Positions 34,541 through 61,712 of a stretch of DNA of 64,000 nt are shown here, in pieces (positions within the stretch are counted from its first letter, which is position 1; each line of letters opens with the position of its first letter). Both the position numbers and the translations under genes were made by a program. The notes beneath the pieces are model-generated. The model saw nothing but the letters and a program-made list of their open reading frames with translations. It did not search any database and was not told the DNA's origin. The stretch comes from Alphaproteobacteria bacterium (lineage in GTDB: Bacteria > Pseudomonadota > Alphaproteobacteria > JBMOFM01): NCBI GenBank assembly GCA_049318825.1, contig JBMOFM010000006.1, positions 50,013 to 114,012 on the forward strand, written 5' to 3'.

Positions 34541-35029
34541 ATGTATTCAATTCTTAATAACGGTATTTCCAGCGACCAGAAAAAAGATATTGATTGTCCT
34601 AGTTTGCAAAGAATATTTAACCACTCTATAATAGATGAATTGCAACCTGCCGATAACCCAGTTTTATGGGATGGGATTGTACATATTTGTAATGAATTAT
34701 CGGTTGCTATGCCGGTTATTTATATTATTGAACACCCTATTCCAAGAATTAACACGATTAACGTCACCGGCTCTATAGCAATAACCAGTTCTTTTCTGGC
34801 ACTGCCTGACGCCGAGATCCGCCATCATTTAGCAGCGATTGCCCATGAAATAGGTCATAGTTTTTGTGAACCAGAAGAAAAATTATCTAAAGAGTATTTG
34901 GATATTGCCCTTTTATATGGGGAGTACGCCCTTTTATATAGGGATACCATACAAACAATGATGCAATTAGAAAAATATGCAGCAGCACCGTTGTTTTTTG
35001 CTTTGGTTGAAAAAAACTCACCTACATGA
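34541..35029 (+). CDS. M48-like zinc metallopeptidase, N-terminal part (HExxH); split gene
   Basis: IAHEIGHSF zinc-binding motif. No signal peptide or TM. Confidence 0.4.
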   Translation: MYSILNNGISSDQKKDIDCPSLQRIFNHSIIDELQPADNPVLWDGIVHICNELSVAMPVIYIIEHPIPRINTINVTGSIAITSSFLALPDAEIRHHLAAIAHEIGHSFCEPEEKLSKEYLDIALLYGEYALLYRDTIQTMMQLEKYAAAPLFFALVEKNSPT

Positions 35030-35337
35030 TTGCTTTTTATGAAGCAGATGAAAAAATGCAAGAACATGGCAAGGAAGCAGCAAAAATAAAGCGACGCATA
35101 GAAATGAAAGCAGATAGAGTAGCCGTGCAGGCTGTTGATCCAAGGGATTTAGCTGAAATATTGCATATAATGTGTCCAAACTGGTTGCATGAAGACCAAC
35201 TTTCTAAGAAAAATCCTTATGCGCCTCATCCAACATTAAAAGAGCGTTTTTGTCAGTTAGCTGGTTTGGCCTTGGAGAAATCTTCCACCCAAAACCCTGC
35301 TAAACCCCAAAATAGGCGGATGCAAAATAGCGGCTAA
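35026..35337 (+). CDS. M48-like zinc metallopeptidase, C-terminal part (ExxAD); split gene
   Basis: EMKADRVAVQAVDPRDLAEIL lies about 87 codons after the HExxH of the upstream ORF, which is M48 spacing. The two ORFs overlap by ATGA: either a frameshift/pseudogene or a translationally coupled pair. Confidence 0.35.
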   Translation: MIAFYEADEKMQEHGKEAAKIKRRIEMKADRVAVQAVDPRDLAEILHIMCPNWLHEDQLSKKNPYAPHPTLKERFCQLAGLALEKSSTQNPAKPQNRRMQNSG

Positions 35338-46483: not shown

Positions 46484-47791
46484 ATGAAGGGTTTAACGCG
46501 CCAGCAATGGATTGTTTTTATTGCGGCTTGGTTGGGTTGGGGCTTTGATGTTTTTGACGGATTGCTGTTCAATTACGTTGCCCCCAATTGCGTGCCAACC
46601 CTGTTGGGGCTTGAGATTGGCTCTCCTGCTGCCAAGGCTGCCACTTTGTATTGGACAGGCCTCATCACCTCTATGCTATTGCTGGGCTGGGCGGCAGGTG
46701 GAATTATTTTCGGCTATATTGGCGATAGGTTAGGGCGCAGTAAAACCCTGTTGCTCACCATGTTATTATATGCTTTGGGTACTGGCTTATGTGCTTTTGT
46801 GCCGAATATGGAATTATTATTACTGTGCCGTTTTATTGCCAGCCTTGGTATTGGTGGGGAATGGGCAGCGGGGGCTTCCATGGTGGCCGAAGCCATGCCC
46901 GAAAAATACCGCGTGGAAGCAGGGGCGTTGTTATATACCTCTGCGCCCATTGGGTTGTTTTTGGCCACAGCGGTGAATGCGATGATTACTGGTTTATTTC
47001 CTGATCAACCTGAGGTCTCGTGGCGTTATGTTTTTCTTTGTGGGTTAATTCCTGCTGCTTTAGCCTTTGTTATCCGTTTTTTCTTAAAAGAACCAGAACG
47101 CTGGCAAGAGGTGGCACAAAAGACAAAACCACCCCGTATTAGTGAATTATTTTCAGCCGAAAACCGCCGCTTTACTCGCAGCGGCGTATTAATGGCTTTG
47201 ATTGCTTTGCTCACATGGTGGAGTTGCAATGCTTTTATTCCCGTGGTGGCGGTGGGTCTAGGCCATGCCAGTGCAGAGGCTACAGGCATTATCGCCACGC
47301 AAGGCTTATTAGAAGGCTGGAAATCATGGCTTACTTCTGGCTTTAATTTGGGTGGCTTATTGGGTACATTGCTCACTATTCCAGCGGCCAAAATATTGGG
47401 CAGAAAAAAAATGTTCAGCCTTTATTTTGCGCTGGCTTCTCTTGCGTTACTCACGGCTTTTAGTGGGTTCATGCCGCAAGAGAAAATAGTGTGGACGGGC
47501 TTATATTTTGTGATTGGTCTCACGGTTTTTGGCGTATTTGGTAGTTTTACTTTTTACCTACCGGAACTTTTTCCTACCAGATTGCGCGCTACGGGTTCGG
47601 GCTTTTGCTATAATATTGGCCGCGTGATTACCTCTGTGGGCCCTTTTTTGGTCGGCAGCATCGCCGCACAAAAATCCAACGCCCTGCAAGGCGCGTTGGA
47701 TTTATTATTCTGGGTGGGCTTTATTCCCTTAATTGGCATTTTACTGATGCCTTTAGTGATAGAAACAAAAGGCCAAACATTGCGGGATTAG
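46484..47791 (+). CDS. MFS transporter
   Basis: 435 aa with 12 predicted TM and MFS loop motifs (G-x-x-x-D-R-x-G-R-like GDRLGRSKTLL). Confidence 0.7.
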   Translation: MKGLTRQQWIVFIAAWLGWGFDVFDGLLFNYVAPNCVPTLLGLEIGSPAAKAATLYWTGLITSMLLLGWAAGGIIFGYIGDRLGRSKTLLLTMLLYALGTGLCAFVPNMELLLLCRFIASLGIGGEWAAGASMVAEAMPEKYRVEAGALLYTSAPIGLFLATAVNAMITGLFPDQPEVSWRYVFLCGLIPAALAFVIRFFLKEPERWQEVAQKTKPPRISELFSAENRRFTRSGVLMALIALLTWWSCNAFIPVVAVGLGHASAEATGIIATQGLLEGWKSWLTSGFNLGGLLGTLLTIPAAKILGRKKMFSLYFALASLALLTAFSGFMPQEKIVWTGLYFVIGLTVFGVFGSFTFYLPELFPTRLRATGSGFCYNIGRVITSVGPFLVGSIAAQKSNALQGALDLLFWVGFIPLIGILLMPLVIETKGQTLRD

Positions 47792-49593
47792 TTGGATTGG
47801 CCATTATCAATTCTCTCCCCCATGAGGGCGCCATAGGCGGTGCTGAAGCCGGGGGTAGTGGCACCATTATATACCCCGCCTTCATGGGTGAAGTTCTGCA
47901 ATAGTTGGGTGTGTACCACCGCTATACCCGCTTGTACCAAATGCTGAACAAGTTGTGCCAATTCTATTCTGTTTTCTATAGCGGTGCCTTGATTTTTTAA
48001 CAGAAAGCGGCAGCGTTGATGATCCACCAGATAGGGGTCCATCAAGCTGGGCCACACCTCTTGCCCACGGTTGGTGATGCGTTGTAGCACATAATTTTCT
48101 CCCGCTGCTTCTTGCAATTGCTGCGCTAAAGATTGCAGAGCAATGATGGTTAATAACCGCCCCTGTTCTTGATATTTTTTCAATAGGGCAAGGGCTTCTG
48201 GTGCTGGCATTTGCTCAATAGATGCCGTGAAATAGCTATTATTAAACGACAAGCCGGCTTTTAAGGTGCGCACCCCCCAACTGATATATTCGCGTACACT
48301 CTCTGTTGTATGAAAATGGCTCACATTTAAGATGTCTTCATAATTTAAGCCTGTTTTCTGGTGCCAATATTGTAGAATATTGGCCTCTAATCCGTGCCAT
48401 TCAATAAACACATCCATCCCTAGAATATCGGTTTTTTGGGCTTTTACCAACATGGGTGGCGCCACGATTTTTTCTTTATGCGCGCGAAACTTATCCCATT
48501 TCAAGCAGCGTGCCTGTAGTGCCCCTTCTGGCACTTTTTGGCCGGATTTTATTTTTTCTAAACGCTGGGCAATTTCATCGCCAAATTCGTGGCAACCACG
48601 CTTTAATGAAACCGATGTTTCTTTCTCTTTTTCTTCTTGGTAAGCCCCGCGAATATCGCCAGTATGCACACCGTCTTGTAATGTCCATAACAGGGCATGG
48701 TATAAATGGCGCGCCGCTGTTTGATTACCATCGCCAATATGCACCAGCATATCAATAGCGGCCATTAATAAAGCCGTGGGGTTGGCCAGATTTTTGCCAG
48801 CAATATCGGGCGCGGTGCCGTGCATGGCTTCAAACATGGCATAATCTTGACCAATATTGGCTGAGCCCACCAAGCCAACGCCCCCCGCTAATTTTGCTGT
48901 AATATCTGAACCAATATCCCCAAAAATATTACTGGTAACCACCGCATCATATTTTTCTGGTTTAACTGCCAGTTCTGCTAGGCCATCATCAATATTTTTG
49001 AAAAATGAGGTGATGTGGGGCTCATATTCTTTAGCCAATTGCCAGAATATTTTTTCAAATAACCCGCCAGTATTTTTCAAAATATTGGGTTTTTCTAGCC
49101 CCAACATGGTTTTTCTACCCTGCTGCAGGGCCAATTCAAAAGCAATACGAATCGCTTTTTCACAGCCTTGATGGCTCATTAAACGCAAGGCCATTTTTAC
49201 ATTGGGGCTTTCATCATATTCAATGGCGGCGTATAAATCTTCAATATTTTCGCGCACAAATAATAAATCCATTTGTGGAAAATGGCTATCCACCACGGGG
49301 TAGAAGGAAGCACAGCGGCGCACCGAAACGCTTTGTTCAAAACCCTTACGCACCGTTACATTAAAGCTTTTACTGCCACCAATAGAAGAGGGGGTTTCTG
49401 TTGGCCCTTTCAGCACTATTTTATGCTTGCGAATAAGCGCAAAACAATCAGTAATTTCTTGCGCGCTGGCTTCTTTACCCAAATGGGCAGGAATAAAATC
49501 GATTTTCGCGCCCACTTTTTGTAAAAGACTAACCACCACATCACTAATTTCAGGCCCAATACCATCACCTTTAACCAAAACCACTGAACGCAT
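47788..49593 (-). CDS. isocitrate/isopropylmalate dehydrogenase-family enzyme fused to a roughly 255-aa C-terminal domain of unknown function
   Basis: N-terminal 345 aa: VVLVKGDGIGPEI, NIFGDIGSDITAKLAGGVGLVGSANIG, GTAPDIAGKNLANPTALLMA. The C-terminal 255 aa have no recognisable motif. Start set to ATG 49593 (RBS ggaga); the track extension to 49794 reads antisense through tRNA-His. Confidence 0.65.
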   Translation of the reverse strand: MRSVVLVKGDGIGPEISDVVVSLLQKVGAKIDFIPAHLGKEASAQEITDCFALIRKHKIVLKGPTETPSSIGGSKSFNVTVRKGFEQSVSVRRCASFYPVVDSHFPQMDLLFVRENIEDLYAAIEYDESPNVKMALRLMSHQGCEKAIRIAFELALQQGRKTMLGLEKPNILKNTGGLFEKIFWQLAKEYEPHITSFFKNIDDGLAELAVKPEKYDAVVTSNIFGDIGSDITAKLAGGVGLVGSANIGQDYAMFEAMHGTAPDIAGKNLANPTALLMAAIDMLVHIGDGNQTAARHLYHALLWTLQDGVHTGDIRGAYQEEKEKETSVSLKRGCHEFGDEIAQRLEKIKSGQKVPEGALQARCLKWDKFRAHKEKIVAPPMLVKAQKTDILGMDVFIEWHGLEANILQYWHQKTGLNYEDILNVSHFHTTESVREYISWGVRTLKAGLSFNNSYFTASIEQMPAPEALALLKKYQEQGRLLTIIALQSLAQQLQEAAGENYVLQRITNRGQEVWPSLMDPYLVDHQRCRFLLKNQGTAIENRIELAQLVQHLVQAGIAVVHTQLLQNFTHEGGVYNGATTPGFSTAYGALMGERIDNGQSN

Positions 49594-49717
49594 ATATTCT
49601 CCTATTGATAAAAGGGCAGTTAGAGAGCCATTTTTCTTTGCATGTGTCATCCTGACTTGAAAACAATATTGACGAAAGAGTAAAAATCTGAATAATGCAG
49701 TTTTATTAGTTAAGCAT

Positions 49718-49793
49718 GGCGGTTGTAGCTCAGCGGTAGAGCCCTCGGTTGTGGTCCGAGTTGTCGTGGGTTCGAACCCCATCAATCGCCCCA
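49718..49793 (+). tRNA. tRNA-His (GTG anticodon), with encoded G-1 and CCA
   Basis: Cloverleaf: G-1, acceptor gcggttg/caatcgc, D-arm tagctcagcggtagagc, anticodon stem ctcgg/ccgag with loop ttGTGgt, T-arm gtgggttcgaaccc, discriminator C, CCA. Confidence 0.85.
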
Positions 49794-49812
49794 TTCTTCA
49801 ACGATAATCTAT

Positions 49813-53581: not shown

Positions 53582-54691
53582 TTACTGCGTAATAGAAGCA
53601 GTGTTGCTATTGCCTTGTTGAATAATACCAGCAATGTTACCAAAACCAGTTTGTATGAAGCTTTGGTAGTTGCTATCACCAATTTGTGAAGCGGTAATCA
53701 CGTTACCACCACTATATTGGCTAGCATAAATGCTGTTGAAATTACCAATTTGTTCGCCAGAGAAGCTTTGGTAATCATTTTCTTGATACAGCACGATGAT
53801 GTTGCTGTTGCCATTTTGGTAGGCATAAGCATAATCATAATTGCCCAATTGGGTAATATCAATCAGGTTATTTTCACCAAAGCTGTATAAATTAGTTGTA
53901 TTAAATTCACCCACGCGGAACAGGTTAATCACGTTGAACGTGCCAGCACCGCCCGTGCTATCTTGGTAAATAGAATCGGAGTTATTATCCCCAGTTTGGA
54001 TCAGGCTGTAGCTGTTGCCATCGCCATATTGAGAAATCAAACCAAAATTATTATTACCATCTTGCTCTAAATAAGCCTGATTATTGGAGCCATTTTGGTA
54101 CAAAATACCAAGGTTATAATTACCATTTTGCAAAATGCTGGCTAGGTTATTATCGCCATTTTCCTGCACGATGCTGGCGGCATTACCATCGCCATATTGG
54201 CTGATGGAGCCACTATTGCCCGAACCATTATATTGGGTAAGGAAAGTAGCGTTGCCATTGTCTTGGCTGTAAATAGAGCCAATGTTAGAATCGCCAAACT
54301 GAAGAGCATTAGATTGGTTATCATCGCCATATTGGGTGATAGAAAACACATTACCATTACCCACTTGGAAACCATATTGGTAGCCCGAATCGGTAAAATA
54401 AATACCGGGGCCTACAGAATTGCCATTACCATATTGGTTAACGCTAGCATTGTTGCTGTTGCCATTTTGTAAAAAAGGTTGAAACACACCTTCATTCAAA
54501 AAACCAATAATGTTGCTATCGCCTTGCTGATTGCCATAAAAGCTGTTGCCCTCACCGCTTACCTGATCGATACCCACTTGGTTGTTGAGGCCAGATTGGC
54601 TGATGGTGCTGGAGTTGCTATCAGCGTGCGCTGCGCTTGCTGCTAGGGTTAGCACCAACGCCATGGTGCCAAATAGAAAATTCTTGCTCAT
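53582..54691 (-). CDS. secreted curlin-repeat protein (CsgA/CsgB-like functional amyloid subunit)
   Basis: Signal peptide ...AASAAHA, then at least 10 imperfect 20-23-aa repeats with the curlin consensus S-x-I-x-Q-x-G-x-x-N-x-A-x-I-x-Q (ISQYGDGNAASIVQENGDNNLASILQNGNYNLGILYQNGSNNQAYLEQDGNNNFGLISQYGDGNSYSLIQTGDNNSDSIYQ). Confidence 0.6.
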   Translation of the reverse strand: MSKNFLFGTMALVLTLAASAAHADSNSSTISQSGLNNQVGIDQVSGEGNSFYGNQQGDSNIIGFLNEGVFQPFLQNGNSNNASVNQYGNGNSVGPGIYFTDSGYQYGFQVGNGNVFSITQYGDDNQSNALQFGDSNIGSIYSQDNGNATFLTQYNGSGNSGSISQYGDGNAASIVQENGDNNLASILQNGNYNLGILYQNGSNNQAYLEQDGNNNFGLISQYGDGNSYSLIQTGDNNSDSIYQDSTGGAGTFNVINLFRVGEFNTTNLYSFGENNLIDITQLGNYDYAYAYQNGNSNIIVLYQENDYQSFSGEQIGNFNSIYASQYSGGNVITASQIGDSNYQSFIQTGFGNIAGIIQQGNSNTASITQ

Positions 54692-55935: not shown

Positions 55936-56523
55936 ATGCCGCGGTTTAACCAACATTTTGCTTTGTGTTTAGTGATGGGGTTGTTATTGGCCGCTTGCGC
56001 TAAGCCGCCAGCCTCATCCATTCCACCCGTTTCTATCCAGTCCAAAGCACCAGTGTTACTGAATGTTGCCCAAATTCAAGTGGTGAATGAAATTCCACCG
56101 TCCAATTCTTCGCGCCAAGTAGAGCAGTGGTTTCCTACCCCGCCATATCAAGCCCTACGCCACATGGTAGAACAGCGTTTTAAGGCCGTGGGTAGTGAAG
56201 GCATTGCCACCATTCATTTGAAAGACATAAAAGTGGTGGAAGAAAATTTGCCCGTTACCGATGGTGTGGCCGGATTATTTGTGAGCGAACCATCCGAGCG
56301 TTACCGTGCTACCCTTAATGTGGCCGTGGATGCCGTTTCTGGCGATAGAACCCGTACCGCCAGCACCGAAATTCGCGCCGAGCAAACCACCACCGTACAA
56401 AAAGGGGCAACCCTTGCGGAACGGGAAGTGGTATGGGATAAATTGCTACAAGATATGCTGCGCCAGTTGGATAATAGCCTGAGTGAAGGGGTGCGGAAAT
56501 ATTTAGGGGCTTTTGTTCAGTAA
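55936..56523 (+). CDS. lipoprotein, unknown function
   Basis: Lipobox LLLAAC; 195 aa. Confidence 0.5.
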   Translation: MPRFNQHFALCLVMGLLLAACAKPPASSIPPVSIQSKAPVLLNVAQIQVVNEIPPSNSSRQVEQWFPTPPYQALRHMVEQRFKAVGSEGIATIHLKDIKVVEENLPVTDGVAGLFVSEPSERYRATLNVAVDAVSGDRTRTASTEIRAEQTTTVQKGATLAEREVVWDKLLQDMLRQLDNSLSEGVRKYLGAFVQ

Positions 56524-57537
56524 AGCTTTGGGGGCAACAGGTAGGCTGGTACGGGGGGCAGGTTCTAACTTGCCTGTTTCAGAATCGAGGCGTTCAAACC
56601 AGTGGGCAGAGCCTTGATACGCCCAAGCTTTACCCTTTTTATCTTCTTCTCCCACTGCTTTCCAGCTTTCAATAAGTTCCATGGTGCTGGCGGGGCATGG
56701 CGTGAGATCGGACGATTGGTTGACAGTTTCACAAAAAGCAGTGAGCGTGTGCATGGCTTGCACTGCTCGGTATAGCCACCAACCATGTGGTTCTGGGATG
56801 CCAAGAAGATTTTTCCTAGAATAGGGCGTTAGAGGAATGCGTCTTGGGGTATCTGAACCAATAATATCAGTTATTTTTTTGAATGCCAACACCAGTGATT
56901 CAGGCGGGTACCCAGCTTCATATAACCGGCGAATGGCGGAAAGATCGGCATTACGTTCATTGGCAGAAAGAGCCATTTCTGTGCCATCCGTGAATTTTAT
57001 TGTGCCGAATCGGTCGATGTTATGAAGGTTATCAATAGCGATAAATTCCCCTTCTTTAGCCGCCACTTCCCAATGGCCATATTCATGGGCCAATACTGCT
57101 GCCAATTGATTATCATTCAGCAATTCCAAGAACATTCTGGTAATGCCCAAATTGGGAAACTCAGCTGGGTATTGAGGGGCATACCATGCACTTATTTCGG
57201 TTTTGGTGCTGATTTCGATGACCATTTTTTGCAAGTTAAAGACCGCATGGTTAAGAGTTGAACCTGGGTAGGTATTGCTAGCTTTCGCCAAGCGCTGCGC
57301 GATTGCGATTAACCGTTTTACATCGGGATCTTCTGCCAGCCCTGACGCTGATTGTTGCGGTTTGGGGTTAAAAATAAAAGGCGATGATGGCTGCGATGAC
57401 GGAACGATGTTGCTATCATCGGCAAAAACGGGGCGGTTTATGGCAAAAATCGCAAGGGTGCTAGCTGAAATCACAGTCACCATTGCTGCACGATTGAAAA
57501 TCTTATGAAGATGCATGTGTTTACCGCTTGCCTGCAA
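56503..57537 (-). CDS. secreted M48-like zinc metallopeptidase-domain protein, tandem paralog A
   Basis: Signal peptide; AHEYGHWE (HExxH); ERNADLSAIRRLYEAGYPPESL (M48 ExxAD...AGYxP); C-terminal Cys pair AFCETVNQSSDLTPCPASTM. Confidence 0.55.
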   Translation of the reverse strand: MQASGKHMHLHKIFNRAAMVTVISASTLAIFAINRPVFADDSNIVPSSQPSSPFIFNPKPQQSASGLAEDPDVKRLIAIAQRLAKASNTYPGSTLNHAVFNLQKMVIEISTKTEISAWYAPQYPAEFPNLGITRMFLELLNDNQLAAVLAHEYGHWEVAAKEGEFIAIDNLHNIDRFGTIKFTDGTEMALSANERNADLSAIRRLYEAGYPPESLVLAFKKITDIIGSDTPRRIPLTPYSRKNLLGIPEPHGWWLYRAVQAMHTLTAFCETVNQSSDLTPCPASTMELIESWKAVGEEDKKGKAWAYQGSAHWFERLDSETGKLEPAPRTSLPVAPKALLNKSP

Positions 57538-57628
57538 TGCTGTAAACGCATAGCAATATTTCTTTCATAAGGCCAGTATAAATAATTATTCTTTGTGCTC
57601 TGCAACCATAAAACCAGAATATAGAAAA

Positions 57629-58768
57629 TTATGGGGTGTTTTTCAGTAATTTCGGGCGGGGTAGTGTGTTGATGGGTACTGTTATTGTAGCAACTGGTCT
57701 TATCTCGCCGCTATCGGCATTAACGCGTTCAAACCACTTGGTTGTGCCCGTAAACTCCCAAGCTTTAGCCTTTGTATCCTCTTCTCTGGCTATTTTCCAG
57801 CTCTCAATAAAATTCATGGTGCTGGCGGCGCAGGGTGGTAAATTGGGTGAATTTTCAATGGTTTCACAAAAAGCGGTAAGCGTTTGCATGACTTGATTAA
57901 CCCTAACAATATTCCACCCTTGCGGCACAGGAAAGCCCCCCAAGGGCGTGAGCATATCCTGCGGGGTTAATGGAATGGGGTTAGGGGTATCCGAGCCATT
58001 AATATCCTCCATTTTCTTGAAAAAAAGTACTAGTGACTCAGGCGGGTATCCAGCTTCATATAACCGGCGAATGGTGGAAAGATCGGCATTACGTTCATTC
58101 GCGGCTTGTGAAATTTGGCTGCCATCAGCAAATTTTACTGTTCCCACCATTTTCGAGCTTTGTGTATCGAATCTCGCATCTACCCCACTATTATCATTGT
58201 CCTTTTTCAGCACCTCAACATCAATAATTTTTGCCCCTGCTTTTCCAGTTATTTCCCAATGGGCATATTCATGCGCGAATACGGCGGCTAATTGTTGTTC
58301 GGTTAATAACTTTAATAATTTGGCATGCATGCCAAATTTGGGGGTCGCGGCACTGAATAAGGGGTCGTGCCAAGCGCCCTGACCTTTTTCCGACCTGATT
58401 TCCACCGTCAGCTGGTGAAGATCGAAGCTGGGCGGCGTGACCGTGGAATCTGGAAAGCTATTGGTGCCTTGCATCAGCTGCTCCATAATGTGGGGCAAGC
58501 GGTTGATCATGGCATTAATTGTTGGGTCTGCAACATCATCGCCGGTGCGTTTATCTACCATTGTGATGCCGTTATCGGCAGAATATTGAATCCCTTCGGC
58601 AGCTTTTAATTCGTCTGCTGGCGTTTGGTATGATGCCGGTGCAACGCTGCTATCACTGGGCAAGGGCGGTAAAATAATGGGAGATTGTCCTTCTGCCTGT
58701 AGAGTGCCAGCCATAAGCGTTGTAGTTATAGTAATGGAAGCCGCCGCGATATTAAAAAACTGTTTCAT
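57629..58768 (-). CDS. secreted M48-like zinc metallopeptidase-domain protein, tandem paralog B
   Basis: Signal peptide; AHEYAHWE; ERNADLSTIRRLYEAGYPPESL; AFCETIENSPNLPPCAASTM. About 60 percent identical to paralog A in the C-terminal 150 aa. Confidence 0.55.
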   Translation of the reverse strand: MKQFFNIAAASITITTTLMAGTLQAEGQSPIILPPLPSDSSVAPASYQTPADELKAAEGIQYSADNGITMVDKRTGDDVADPTINAMINRLPHIMEQLMQGTNSFPDSTVTPPSFDLHQLTVEIRSEKGQGAWHDPLFSAATPKFGMHAKLLKLLTEQQLAAVFAHEYAHWEITGKAGAKIIDVEVLKKDNDNSGVDARFDTQSSKMVGTVKFADGSQISQAANERNADLSTIRRLYEAGYPPESLVLFFKKMEDINGSDTPNPIPLTPQDMLTPLGGFPVPQGWNIVRVNQVMQTLTAFCETIENSPNLPPCAASTMNFIESWKIAREEDTKAKAWEFTGTTKWFERVNADSGEIRPVATITVPINTLPRPKLLKNTP

Positions 58769-58858
58769 GGCTGTAAGGTGCTAAGGCAATTAAAAAACTC
58801 TATCATTTTACGATAATTAACGAGCAAACTCAAGTTGCTTTCTGCGCACAGCGATTTC

Positions 58859-60007
58859 CTATCGCTTAAAAGCGGGTTTTGAGGATTGTTTAGGCCGCGT
58901 GGTGGCTGTAGATAAAGGCGCGGTTGGTTGTAAAACCGGAGATAGAGATTGTAGATTGCGCAGCCATTTTTCTGTGCCCTGATATGCCCATGCTTCACCT
59001 TGCTGGTCTAACGCTTGTGCTTCTTGTTGCCAGCTGGCCACCAATTTGTTAGTGCTTTCGGGGCAGGTTTCAATAGCACAGAACCCAGCCAGAGCATTCA
59101 TTACCTGTGCTACCCTGAATATTGGCCAACCATGCGGACTACGAGAGCCATCACTAGAGACCACGTCAAAAGGCGTGGTGGGGATAGGGGCAGGGGTTTT
59201 GTCTCCCCACACTTTTTGTAATCGTACCATCGCTAATATAAAAGCTTCAGGGGGCAAGCCGCCGGCATGTAGGCGCTTGATGCTGGCTAAATCGGCGTTG
59301 CGTTCATCGCCAGAGGCCAGTAATTTTGTGCCATCATCAAAATGGAAGCCCATAAACTCACGGCTGGCATGGTAATATTTTTCATTAAAAATAGGCATGT
59401 GAAAACCATTTTTGCCGTCTATTTTTCTGTAAAAACTTGCGGGGTCTGCTGGAGCTAAAGGTTGATTGTTAAACACTCCCTTTTTACCGTGAACCTCTCT
59501 ATGGCCAAATTCATGCGCCAATATTCCCGCCAGTTCAATCTCATTAACCTCTTTGAGTAACGCTGTTGTGATTTCAAAAGCTGGCTGTTCTGCTGGAAAA
59601 CTATGGTCATAAAAGGCATTGGGGTCTTCACTTGCGCTAATTAGAATTTGCATGTGATTGATATCAAGCTCACTAGGGGTAATGGTAGAACCTGGGAAGC
59701 TATTGCTGCCCCGTAATAGCTTTTTTAGTATTTCTGGGAGTTGGGCAATGTTTTCATTCATTCTTTTATCGGTTAGATCACCGCCGCTGCGTTGATCGAT
59801 AATCGTAAAACCATGGCGCTGCGGTGCGATATTTTCTAAAGCTGGCGCATTGGCGGTGGTGGGGGCAGACTGTTCTACAGCCAAAGACGGCATGCCAGTG
59901 AACATGACCGAGCCAATGGCAAAAGACATGGCAACACGGGATGCAATGCCGTTGGCCGCTTGATTAAATGCCTGTTTAATGCCCATATATTTACAATAAA
60001 TATGCAA
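58859..60007 (-). CDS. secreted M48-like zinc metallopeptidase-domain protein, tandem paralog C (more divergent)
   Basis: Signal peptide; AHEFGHRE; ERNADLASIKRLHAGGLPPEAF; GFCAIETCPESTNKL. Confidence 0.5.
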   Translation of the reverse strand: MHIYCKYMGIKQAFNQAANGIASRVAMSFAIGSVMFTGMPSLAVEQSAPTTANAPALENIAPQRHGFTIIDQRSGGDLTDKRMNENIAQLPEILKKLLRGSNSFPGSTITPSELDINHMQILISASEDPNAFYDHSFPAEQPAFEITTALLKEVNEIELAGILAHEFGHREVHGKKGVFNNQPLAPADPASFYRKIDGKNGFHMPIFNEKYYHASREFMGFHFDDGTKLLASGDERNADLASIKRLHAGGLPPEAFILAMVRLQKVWGDKTPAPIPTTPFDVVSSDGSRSPHGWPIFRVAQVMNALAGFCAIETCPESTNKLVASWQQEAQALDQQGEAWAYQGTEKWLRNLQSLSPVLQPTAPLSTATTRPKQSSKPAFKR

Positions 60008-60029: not shown

Positions 60030-60515
60030 TTGCATTTAGGTTCAATGAATATTTTGCTGGAGACACCTTCAATGAGCAGCGATTTTACTGAAGAACAACA
60101 ATCACGTAATTATTATCGTTTATGGTTGCAGGATGAGGTGCGCTTTAGCGATTTGGATGCGTTGGGGCATGTCAGTTCGGTGCGTATGCACGAGTTTTTA
60201 GCCACCGCCCGCACCATGCTGTTTGTAAAAGCCATCCCCGATTATCCCCATGCTGCCATTATTCCCATTCTCAAAAAACAATTGGCGGTGCATCAGCATG
60301 AAATTAACTACCCCGCTAGTTTGGATATTGGTCTCACCATAGAGCGCATGGGCAATAGTTCTGTCACTTTTTGTTTGGGTATTTTTCAAGGCACGCAATG
60401 CGCCGTGCTGGCACGCAATGTTTTTGTGTTTAGTGATCGGCAGGCACGCCGATCACACGCCCCGCCGCAGCAGGTAGTCGAAAATTTTATGACATTGGCA
60501 GGGCGTATTTTATAA
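60030..60515 (+). CDS. hotdog-fold acyl-CoA thioesterase (YbgC/4HBT-like)
   Basis: DLDALGHVSSVRMHEF matches the 4HBT D-x-D-x-x-G-H-V-N-N pattern. About 150 aa. Confidence 0.5.
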   Translation: MHLGSMNILLETPSMSSDFTEEQQSRNYYRLWLQDEVRFSDLDALGHVSSVRMHEFLATARTMLFVKAIPDYPHAAIIPILKKQLAVHQHEINYPASLDIGLTIERMGNSSVTFCLGIFQGTQCAVLARNVFVFSDRQARRSHAPPQQVVENFMTLAGRIL

Positions 60516-61712
60516 GCCCATATTTCTTTTTATATGCCACCATCGGGCTTGAATTTTTTCAGTCCACTCTTGCCCTTGTTGTAACACACCTTCAAATTTT
60601 TGCGTGAAGGATTGAGCCGTGCCAATTTTGGGAAATTGTCTAAACGCACAATCCATCCGTTGCCAATATTTTGTTGCAAAAGAATCCATGCCTATCCGTT
60701 CATAGCGGTCACAAGTGAGCTGATCCACCGCTACAGAATTGGCCTTGATGGTAAAAATAGGGCTCTTTTTATCTGCTTGTGTGCAAGTAAAAGGGCACAC
60801 CGCTGTTGCAACGCCTTCTTTGAGTTCTTGTAGGGATGTATCTGGCTTAAATAAAGTGCCGTCTCTCGCAAGCAATGCACCATTACTGGCTGGCCGCTGA
60901 AACTGTACATGATAAACACCAGTAAATAAGCCATCTGTTACCTGAGCGGCAATATTGGGGGGCAATGGAAAAGAAGGCAGGGGCGCTTCAACATTTTTGT
61001 AAATAGAGGCACTGCTGGCTTCTATGGCGGGGAAACAATCAAGCGATTGAGAGTTGATGAGCTCAGCCGCCGCGCCCATGGCAAAACATAGGCTGATTTG
61101 GGTAAGAATTTTGGGATCTTTATATTGTCGAACCACATCCAACCAGTCAATTTCCAACAATAGTTCTTGATCAGCAGAAACGGCCATGGCCGTAATACCG
61201 ATAGAATTGAGAGAATTGACCACAGTTCCCACTGCCATTCCACCAAAATTGAGGGGGGATATAACAAGGGTGCGCTCATATTTTTGTGTGCAATAATTAT
61301 AATCGCCAGAAAAATTGGTGTTATTATTTTTGTATAATAATACAGCCAAGGCACGGTTTAACATGTGTGCACCATATTCAATGGTTTCACTCGGTAATGG
61401 TATTTTATTAAGCCGTTGACAACGGGCAATCAATTCGCTTTTTTCACTGGCTTGCAGATAGCTTGTTTCAGAAAACACTCGGCCTGAGGCTTCATCGAAT
61501 TTGGTTCGGTTATAAAATTCGCCGATATTGCCAGCAAAAACAGCCACAATTTCATGGGCCGCAATATCAGGCAAGGGTTGGGTATAGATGACTTCTCTAC
61601 CGGAGTGTGGGTCTTTATAAAATGACCATAAATCACCACTGCTAATGAAACGCTGTGCAAATTCTTTGCTGTGTGTATTCACCACCCGCAGCAATTCTTT
61701 ATGGTCCATCAC
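60510..61712 (-). CDS. hypothetical 400-aa cytoplasmic protein
   Basis: Long ORF with good codon periodicity; no motifs recognised; no signal peptide. Confidence 0.4.
   Translation of the reverse strand: MMDHKELLRVVNTHSKEFAQRFISSGDLWSFYKDPHSGREVIYTQPLPDIAAHEIVAVFAGNIGEFYNRTKFDEASGRVFSETSYLQASEKSELIARCQRLNKIPLPSETIEYGAHMLNRALAVLLYKNNNTNFSGDYNYCTQKYERTLVISPLNFGGMAVGTVVNSLNSIGITAMAVSADQELLLEIDWLDVVRQYKDPKILTQISLCFAMGAAAELINSQSLDCFPAIEASSASIYKNVEAPLPSFPLPPNIAAQVTDGLFTGVYHVQFQRPASNGALLARDGTLFKPDTSLQELKEGVATAVCPFTCTQADKKSPIFTIKANSVAVDQLTCDRYERIGMDSFATKYWQRMDCAFRQFPKIGTAQSFTQKFEGVLQQGQEWTEKIQARWWHIKRNMGL

Follow-up and report, generated by a model that had tools for sequence, protein, structure and literature searches.

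A tandem trio of divergent M48-like zinc metalloproteases, predicted to be exported, in an alphaproteobacterial genome

Which proteins are encoded by three adjacent, related genes on the minus strand of a 64-kb stretch of alphaproteobacterial DNA (contig JBMOFM010000006.1, positions 50,013 to 114,012; 64,000 nucleotides, nt, hereafter the window), how have they come to stand side by side, and where may they act? The genes, here named g1, g2 and g3, had been described from their sequence as a tandem triplication of secreted minimal M48-like zinc peptidases (the original prediction), and NCBI gives all three products the name "M48 family metalloprotease". The kind of enzyme is already known and publicly annotated, and what can be added are modest details, namely the rarity of the subfamily, a putative non-canonical plug motif, a C-terminal extension and an expanded lid. 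We consider it probable that the trio consists of Sec-exported, soluble M48 zinc endopeptidases, which stem from an old triplication within this lineage, have since diverged chiefly in lid and N-terminal linker, and most likely act on cell-envelope proteins.

Catalytic motifs and protein architecture

In a mechanical listing of open reading frames (ORFs), the trio has been found exactly where three adjacent same-strand genes had been claimed, at 56503-57537, 57629-58768 and 58859-60007 (344, 379 and 382 amino acids, aa), with g1 and g3 opened up to a TTG codon (57537 and 60007, respectively). Their true starts are likely the ATG codons located seven codons downstream (57516 and 59986), which yield 337 aa for g1 and 375 aa for g3, the same as in the public protein records P0002 and P0003. 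The spacers between the genes measure ~90 nt, and each contains a promoter-like match. The genes and their zinc motifs are positioned as follows, where the stretch between HExxH and ExxAD is termed the lid segment.

56503-57516, minus strand: g1, predicted exported M48-like zinc metalloprotease, 337 aa, identical to P0002; candidate cleavage between VFA and DD after residue 32; lid segment 38 aa
57073-57087, minus strand: g1 HEYGH, zinc-binding/catalytic motif, invariant across the family
56944-56958, minus strand: g1 ERNAD (ExxAD; Glu as putative third zinc ligand)
57629-58768, minus strand: g2, predicted exported M48-like zinc metalloprotease, 379 aa, P0001; candidate cleavage between LQA and EG after residue 25; lid segment 54 aa; plug-like motif with Gln for His
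58259-58273, minus strand: g2 HEYAH, zinc-binding/catalytic motif
58082-58096, minus strand: g2 ERNAD, putative third-ligand motif
58859-59986, minus strand: g3, predicted exported M48-like zinc metalloprotease, 375 aa, P0003; candidate cleavage between SLA and VE after residue 36; lid segment 65 aa; most diverged copy
59501-59515, minus strand: g3 HEFGH, zinc-binding/catalytic motif
59291-59305, minus strand: g3 ERNAD, putative third-ligand motif

Each gene thus carries the HE(Y/F)xH zinc site that had been proposed for it, and the Pfam M48 profile PF01435 matches all three above its gathering cut-off of 20.3 bits (27.8 for g1, 24.6 for g2 and 25.5 for g3). In the PDB, a profile of the trio has retrieved the Geobacter M48 structure 3C37 (E=1e-4), with an alignment that starts at the strand preceding HExxH and takes in E-x-x-A-D and AGY-x-P; weaker matches to BepA chains follow. 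When a profile of six family members was compared with 17 canonical M48 proteins by hhalign, a probability of 99.4% and an E-value of 6.6e-22 were obtained over g2 residues 73-261 (about 190 residues). In these two comparisons, ERNAD...PPE is matched with E-x-x-A-D...AGYNP in 3C37 and with the region around E201 in BepA. The predicted fold has 3C37 and BepA as its nearest neighbours and is the M48 (gluzincin) catalytic fold. All 7 family sequences, as well as the canonical M48 proteins aligned with them, have HExxH, and H-E-x-x-H, E-x-x-A-D, G-x-x-P and one Arg are invariant in family members and canonical M48 alike; within the trio, HE[YF]xH, ERNAD, G-x-P-P-E, a G-W-x3-R element and two cysteines are shared by all copies. 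The helix that had been given as ERNADLSxI...PPE is present and continues after ERNAD with AGYPPE in g1 and g2 and GGLPPE in g3; its S-x-I part is slightly off, as g3 reads ERNADLASIKRL. By sequence-profile, profile-profile and fold comparison, the trio proteins are M48 peptidases, for which zinc-dependent endopeptidase activity is predicted.

Regarding export, the N-termini show the Sec-type features expected of the claimed signal peptides: in all six full-length family members, the N-terminus is positively charged and leads into 18-27 uncharged, hydrophobic residues, soon followed by small residues at -3/-1. A lipobox of the form [LVI][ASTVI][GAS]C has not been found within residues 1-50 in any member of the family. 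The stated absence of transmembrane (TM) helices and of a tetratricopeptide repeat (TPR) domain has also been confirmed, since beyond the signal peptide no 19-residue window of the trio or the family exceeds a Kyte-Doolittle hydropathy of 1.6, and the Pfam scan of the trio has given no TPR match. Each trio protein contains two cysteines in total, both conserved and both situated in the C-terminal region of ~85-90 aa, in agreement with the shared ~90 aa and Cys pair noted earlier. Proteins whose only cysteines are a conserved pair would suit an oxidising compartment. Taken with the N-terminal features, Sec export to the periplasm or beyond is likely, as judged from the sequences. The two cysteines (residues 301 and 313 in g2) flank a helix-to-helix connection and probably form a disulfide that would staple the C-terminal extension; the relatives carry a second Cys pair further upstream. 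In the predicted model of g2, the M48 C-terminal helix beyond the plug-like Arg is followed by two more confident helices (315-333 and 340-348), and the first ~60 and last ~20 residues are predicted to be disordered.

Taken as a whole, each protein would consist of a cleavable signal peptide, leaving the mature protein neither lipid-anchored nor membrane-spanning, a disordered, Pro/Ser/Gln-rich linker of ~35-40 residues, and an M48 catalytic domain in which one helix bears HExxH and the following helix the Glu of ExxAD as third zinc ligand. The variable segment between these two helices would be the counterpart of the flexible lid of BepA/3C37, a motif [H/Q]-G-x4-R would occupy the position of the canonical auto-inhibitory H-P-x4-R plug, and a family-specific two-helix C-terminal extension, probably held by the Cys-pair disulfide, would complete the protein. 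Near the extreme C-terminus, in the disordered tail, nearly all members show a Pro-Lys motif (RPK...; PKM or PKL as final residues in the relatives), which could be a sorting or interaction motif. In the trio, the tails that contain it are encoded at these positions.

56503-56560, minus strand: g1 C-terminal tail with Pro-Lys motif
57629-57690, minus strand: g2 C-terminal tail with Pro-Lys motif
58859-58920, minus strand: g3 C-terminal tail with Pro-Lys motif

Rarity, age and divergence of the copies

An exhaustive HMMER search with the trio profile against 1.84 billion representative proteins has yielded 32 matches at E<=1e-3, six of which lie at E<=1e-10, i.e., the trio itself and P0004, P0005 and P0006, while the others are generic M48 proteins with E-values from 1e-7 to 1e-3. 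Word-indexed protein searches, for which g2, the six-sequence family alignment and an alignment of the relatives were employed as queries, contributed a single further member, the full-length P0006 relative P0033, and otherwise returned the same few sequences and generic M48 proteins. Among the matches listed for species-representative genome contigs, only two weak, unrelated M48 proteins (Deinococcus, UBP9) occur, and two scans of JGI metagenome contigs have found no relative. Contig look-ups returned none for P0001 and, for P0002 and P0003, only short Logan contigs from the same sample. The clade comprises seven sequences from four lineages (the trio and four others from three lineages) among the 1.84 billion representatives; its other members are 27-30% identical to g2 and have kept every motif, and no homolog found departs from HExxH or ExxAD. 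The family is real, conserved and very rare. P0033 and P0004, the two relatives with readable contigs, are single-copy on them, and the triplication appears to be specific to this metagenome-assembled genome. A 367-aa gene on contig L003 (2784-3887) was considered as a second copy in a relative and rejected, as it encodes an unrelated protein.

Within the trio, g1 is 46% identical to g2 and 36% to g3, and direct DNA repeats at a spacing of 1135-1242 nt confirm the proposed tandem duplication at the nucleotide level. Nei-Gojobori analysis on the codon alignment has resulted in a proportion of synonymous differences (pS) of 0.65-0.76, with synonymous divergence (dS) at or near saturation, and in a ratio of nonsynonymous to synonymous divergence (dN/dS) of ~0.31. 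Due to the saturated dS the triplication is old, and according to the dN/dS, a check that had been suggested for the paralogs, all copies have been kept by purifying selection. In the origin proposed here, a gene that occurs once in the readable relatives was triplicated in tandem long ago in this lineage. The catalytic residues have stayed intact in all copies, and divergence has affected mainly the length of the lid and the N-terminal linker. As a separate observation, g1 and g2 are 82-83% identical in nucleotides across ERNAD...PPESL, synonymous sites included, compared with ~50% elsewhere (56890-56960 vs 58030-58100, minus strand), a pattern suggestive of gene conversion in this segment or of exceptionally strong constraint.

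ExxAD had been expected about 50 aa after HExxH in each copy. The distance is not uniform: the segment from HExxH to ExxAD measures 38 residues in g1, 54 in g2 and 65 in g3, compared with 28-29 in the single-copy relatives. Residues 185-207 of g2, within this segment, have a predicted local distance difference test (pLDDT) score below 50, and the insert is consistent with a flexible element on account of this low value. In BepA and 3C37, the matching segment (BepA ~145-195) is a flexible 'active-site lid' (bioRxiv 10.1101/2020.07.30.230011). As the variable segment corresponds to this lid, the paralogs would differ most at the very place where access of the substrate is gated.

A second possible site of altered regulation is situated further downstream. 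The motif H-P-x(4)-R forms an auto-inhibitory plug throughout the M48 family, its His serving as fourth zinc ligand; in BepA this residue is His246, and the H246N mutant behaves as de-regulated (bioRxiv 10.1101/2020.07.30.230011). In our family, H-G-x4-R is found in g1, g3 and 4/4 relatives, and Q-G-x4-R in g2 alone, 57-68 residues past the third-ligand Glu, and the plug Pro is absent in all members. From this spacing and an invariant Arg, the equivalence of H-G-x4-R with the plug is a lead.

56767-56787, minus strand: g1 HGWWLYR, putative counterpart of the H-P-x4-R plug; residue-level alignment of low confidence
57902-57922, minus strand: g2 QGWNIVR, Gln in the putative place of the plug His (residues 283-289)
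59114-59134, minus strand: g3 HGWPIFR, plug-like motif

Possible function and competing explanations

Among known systems, the stand-alone M48 protease domain 3C37 (Geobacter sulfurreducens Q74D82) is 16-21% identical to the trio, which adds to it the disordered N-terminal linker and the two-helix C-terminal extension with its Cys pair, and has HG/QG-x4-R in place of HP-x4-R. Escherichia coli BepA (YfgC), a periplasmic M48 protease that serves the quality control of outer-membrane proteins, is 15-19% identical; it possesses a C-terminal TPR domain, which the trio lacks, and the canonical plug H246-P-x4-R252. HtpX and Ste24 are membrane-embedded, with TM helices flanking the catalytic domain, in contrast to the TM-less trio. 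YcaL and LoiP (YggG) are small proteins with neither TPR nor TM helices. Like the trio they are M48 proteins, and they belong to the cell envelope, but they are lipoproteins, whereas the trio has no lipobox. In E. coli, YcaL and LoiP reside as lipoproteins at the outer membrane, BepA in the periplasm and HtpX in the inner membrane (bioRxiv 10.1101/2020.07.30.230011). Of the distinct soluble M48 subfamily that had been proposed, the signal-bearing subfamily without TM helices and TPR has stood; being soluble without TM helices or TPR does not define a distinct class per se, as 3C37, YcaL and LoiP illustrate.

By analogy to BepA, YcaL and LoiP, the trio would most likely take part in periplasmic protein quality control or processing, i.e., degrade or process envelope proteins in the periplasm, with copies that may cover different substrates or modes of regulation. 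In two of the three lineages with readable context, the M48 gene lies within a few kb of an RsmI-YraN-BON cluster, a weak hint at an envelope function, or simply inherited synteny; the P0033 gene is only 5 bp from an LppC/LpoA-like gene that adjoins RsmI-YraN-BON (L003/L004 11109-14707). Several points weigh against the reading as exported envelope proteases. Its cellular role is drawn from the analogy just named, the signal peptides have been assessed by explicit rules only, the trio and the P0033 gene stand on opposite sides of the cluster, and P0004 is encoded away from it, near SmpB and DapA genes. The promoter-like matches are not enriched (11 found compared with 8.7 +/- 3.0 expected in shuffled sequence), and a terminator scan has likewise remained without enrichment over shuffled sequence. 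The plug-like Arg, though invariant and aligned with the canonical Arg, lies outside the confident hhalign region, which stops before the motif, and a global alignment offsets the His. The PF01435 matches are short, covering ~30-55 residues around HExxH only, and the NCBIfam equivalog models score far under their cut-offs (BepA model NF052400, 17.6 bits vs 570; LoiP, a weak match of 11.4 bits vs 365; HtpX models, at most 21 bits vs 245-422). From these low equivalog scores it follows that the trio is outside all named subfamilies (HtpX, BepA, LoiP), and together with the short Pfam matches they mark it as a divergent branch of M48. The same two observations would also be expected if the HExxH and ExxAD matches were fortuitous and the proteins not M48 peptidases at all, an explanation that is scarcely credible and effectively refuted by sequence-profile, profile-profile and fold comparisons that independently indicate M48, and by motifs that are invariant across the family members.

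That the trio leaves the cell, to act as extracellular proteases with diversified substrates or as effectors directed at a host or competitors, has been judged improbable. It would agree with Sec signals that are accompanied by neither a lipobox nor a membrane anchor, with the conserved Cys pair, with the lineage-specific expansion and with an evolution faster than that of neighbour genes (27-30% identity for the M48 proteins between the trio and P0033 lineages, compared with 43% for RsmI and 54% for the BON protein of the same two lineages), and the C-terminal Pro-Lys tail could be a sorting signal; for the effector variant, the predicted Sec signal is the sole pointer. On the other hand, no secretion-system genes are adjacent to the trio, the characterised M48 proteins compared (BepA, YcaL, LoiP, HtpX) are periplasmic or located in the outer or inner membrane (bioRxiv 10.1101/2020.07.30.230011), and a dN/dS of ~0.3 gives no sign of gene-wide diversifying selection. 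That one or more copies depart from canonical M48 regulation, g2 in particular being a constitutively 'unplugged' protease or a non-proteolytic binder and the trio sharing its work between regulated and unregulated forms, is unlikely and would be compatible with the envelope-protease reading. Such a role for g2 would follow from QGWNIVR, which stands in for the HG-x4-R of g1, g3 and the four relatives, given the fourth zinc ligand His246 and the de-regulated H246N mutant of BepA (bioRxiv 10.1101/2020.07.30.230011). Yet the equivalence of HG-x4-R and HP-x4-R is based on spacing and the Arg at low alignment confidence, the Gln could still interact with zinc, and g2 has retained HExxH and ExxAD under purifying selection. 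The most far-reaching proposal, a rare M48 clade with rewired auto-inhibition, would combine a His-Gly for His-Pro plug and an added, disulfide-stapled helical extension with the loss of the plug His in g2 and lids grown from ~28 to 38-65 residues into a series of proteases that differ in their gating, of which one would be constitutively open, with distinct envelope or extracellular targets, and we regard it as quite improbable.

If the interpretation of the trio as exported envelope proteases is true, a small divergent branch would be added to a well-studied protease family. It would also offer a natural experiment on M48 regulation with paralogs that have different lids, one of them without the putative plug His, and this series bears on how plug and lid gate BepA-type proteases. 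It is no new kind of system, as tandem expansion of exported proteases is common and the genes have already been annotated as M48.

Neighbouring genes and a separate M48-like gene

Downstream of the trio follow, in this order, a convergent gene for a predicted lipoprotein, a lysine-2,3-aminomutase-like radical SAM gene and a gene for a curlin-repeat protein, and upstream of it are located a thioesterase gene, a 400-aa ORF without Pfam match, and the BON-domain gene, then the YraN and RsmI genes. Rfam and tRNA scans of the window have revealed nothing relevant to the trio locus.

53582-54691, minus strand: 369-aa protein with predicted signal peptide and multiple Curlin_rpt repeats (Pfam E=2e-32)
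55936-56523, plus strand: predicted lipoprotein gene, 195 aa, signal ending LLAAC, no Pfam match; convergent with g1 and overlapping its 3' end by 21 nt
60510-61712, minus strand: 400-aa ORF without Pfam match, flanked by the BON-domain gene on one side and the thioesterase/M48 trio on the other; also called (399 aa) on Logan contig L008
61779-63663, minus strand: BON-domain, YraN and RsmI genes, ~1.8 kb from the trio

The pair of lipoprotein gene and g1 is also present on an independent Logan contig (L006). Pfam matches to the curli-secretion components CsgG/E/F have not been found among the scanned neighbours of the curlin-repeat gene.

A further M48-like gene, which had been taken for a fourth, split copy of the trio, is indeed present in two pieces but is a different gene. 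A profile comparison aligns only 10 columns around HExxH, the rule set detects no signal peptide, and the gene has been rejected as a fourth paralog.

34541-35337, plus strand: M48-like gene outside the trio's subfamily, split over two frames, with HEIGH in piece one and EMKAD plus HPTLKER in piece two

Its two ORFs (34541-35029 and 35026-35337) change frame within a run of seven A (35010-35016), and one added A fuses them to a protein of ~265 aa with HEIGH, EMKAD and the canonical HPTLKER, which matches PF01435 at 21.6 bits (cut-off 20.3) over profile positions 47-183. The gene, which appears AT-rich by eye, is either a pseudogene or the product of a homopolymer assembly error.

Elsewhere in the window, a tRNA-His (GTG) at 49719-49793 (plus strand) is wholly contained in the 5' end of an isocitrate dehydrogenase ORF as called mechanically (668 aa; 47788-49794, minus strand), the start of which is probably further downstream, since its Pfam domain begins at residue 71.

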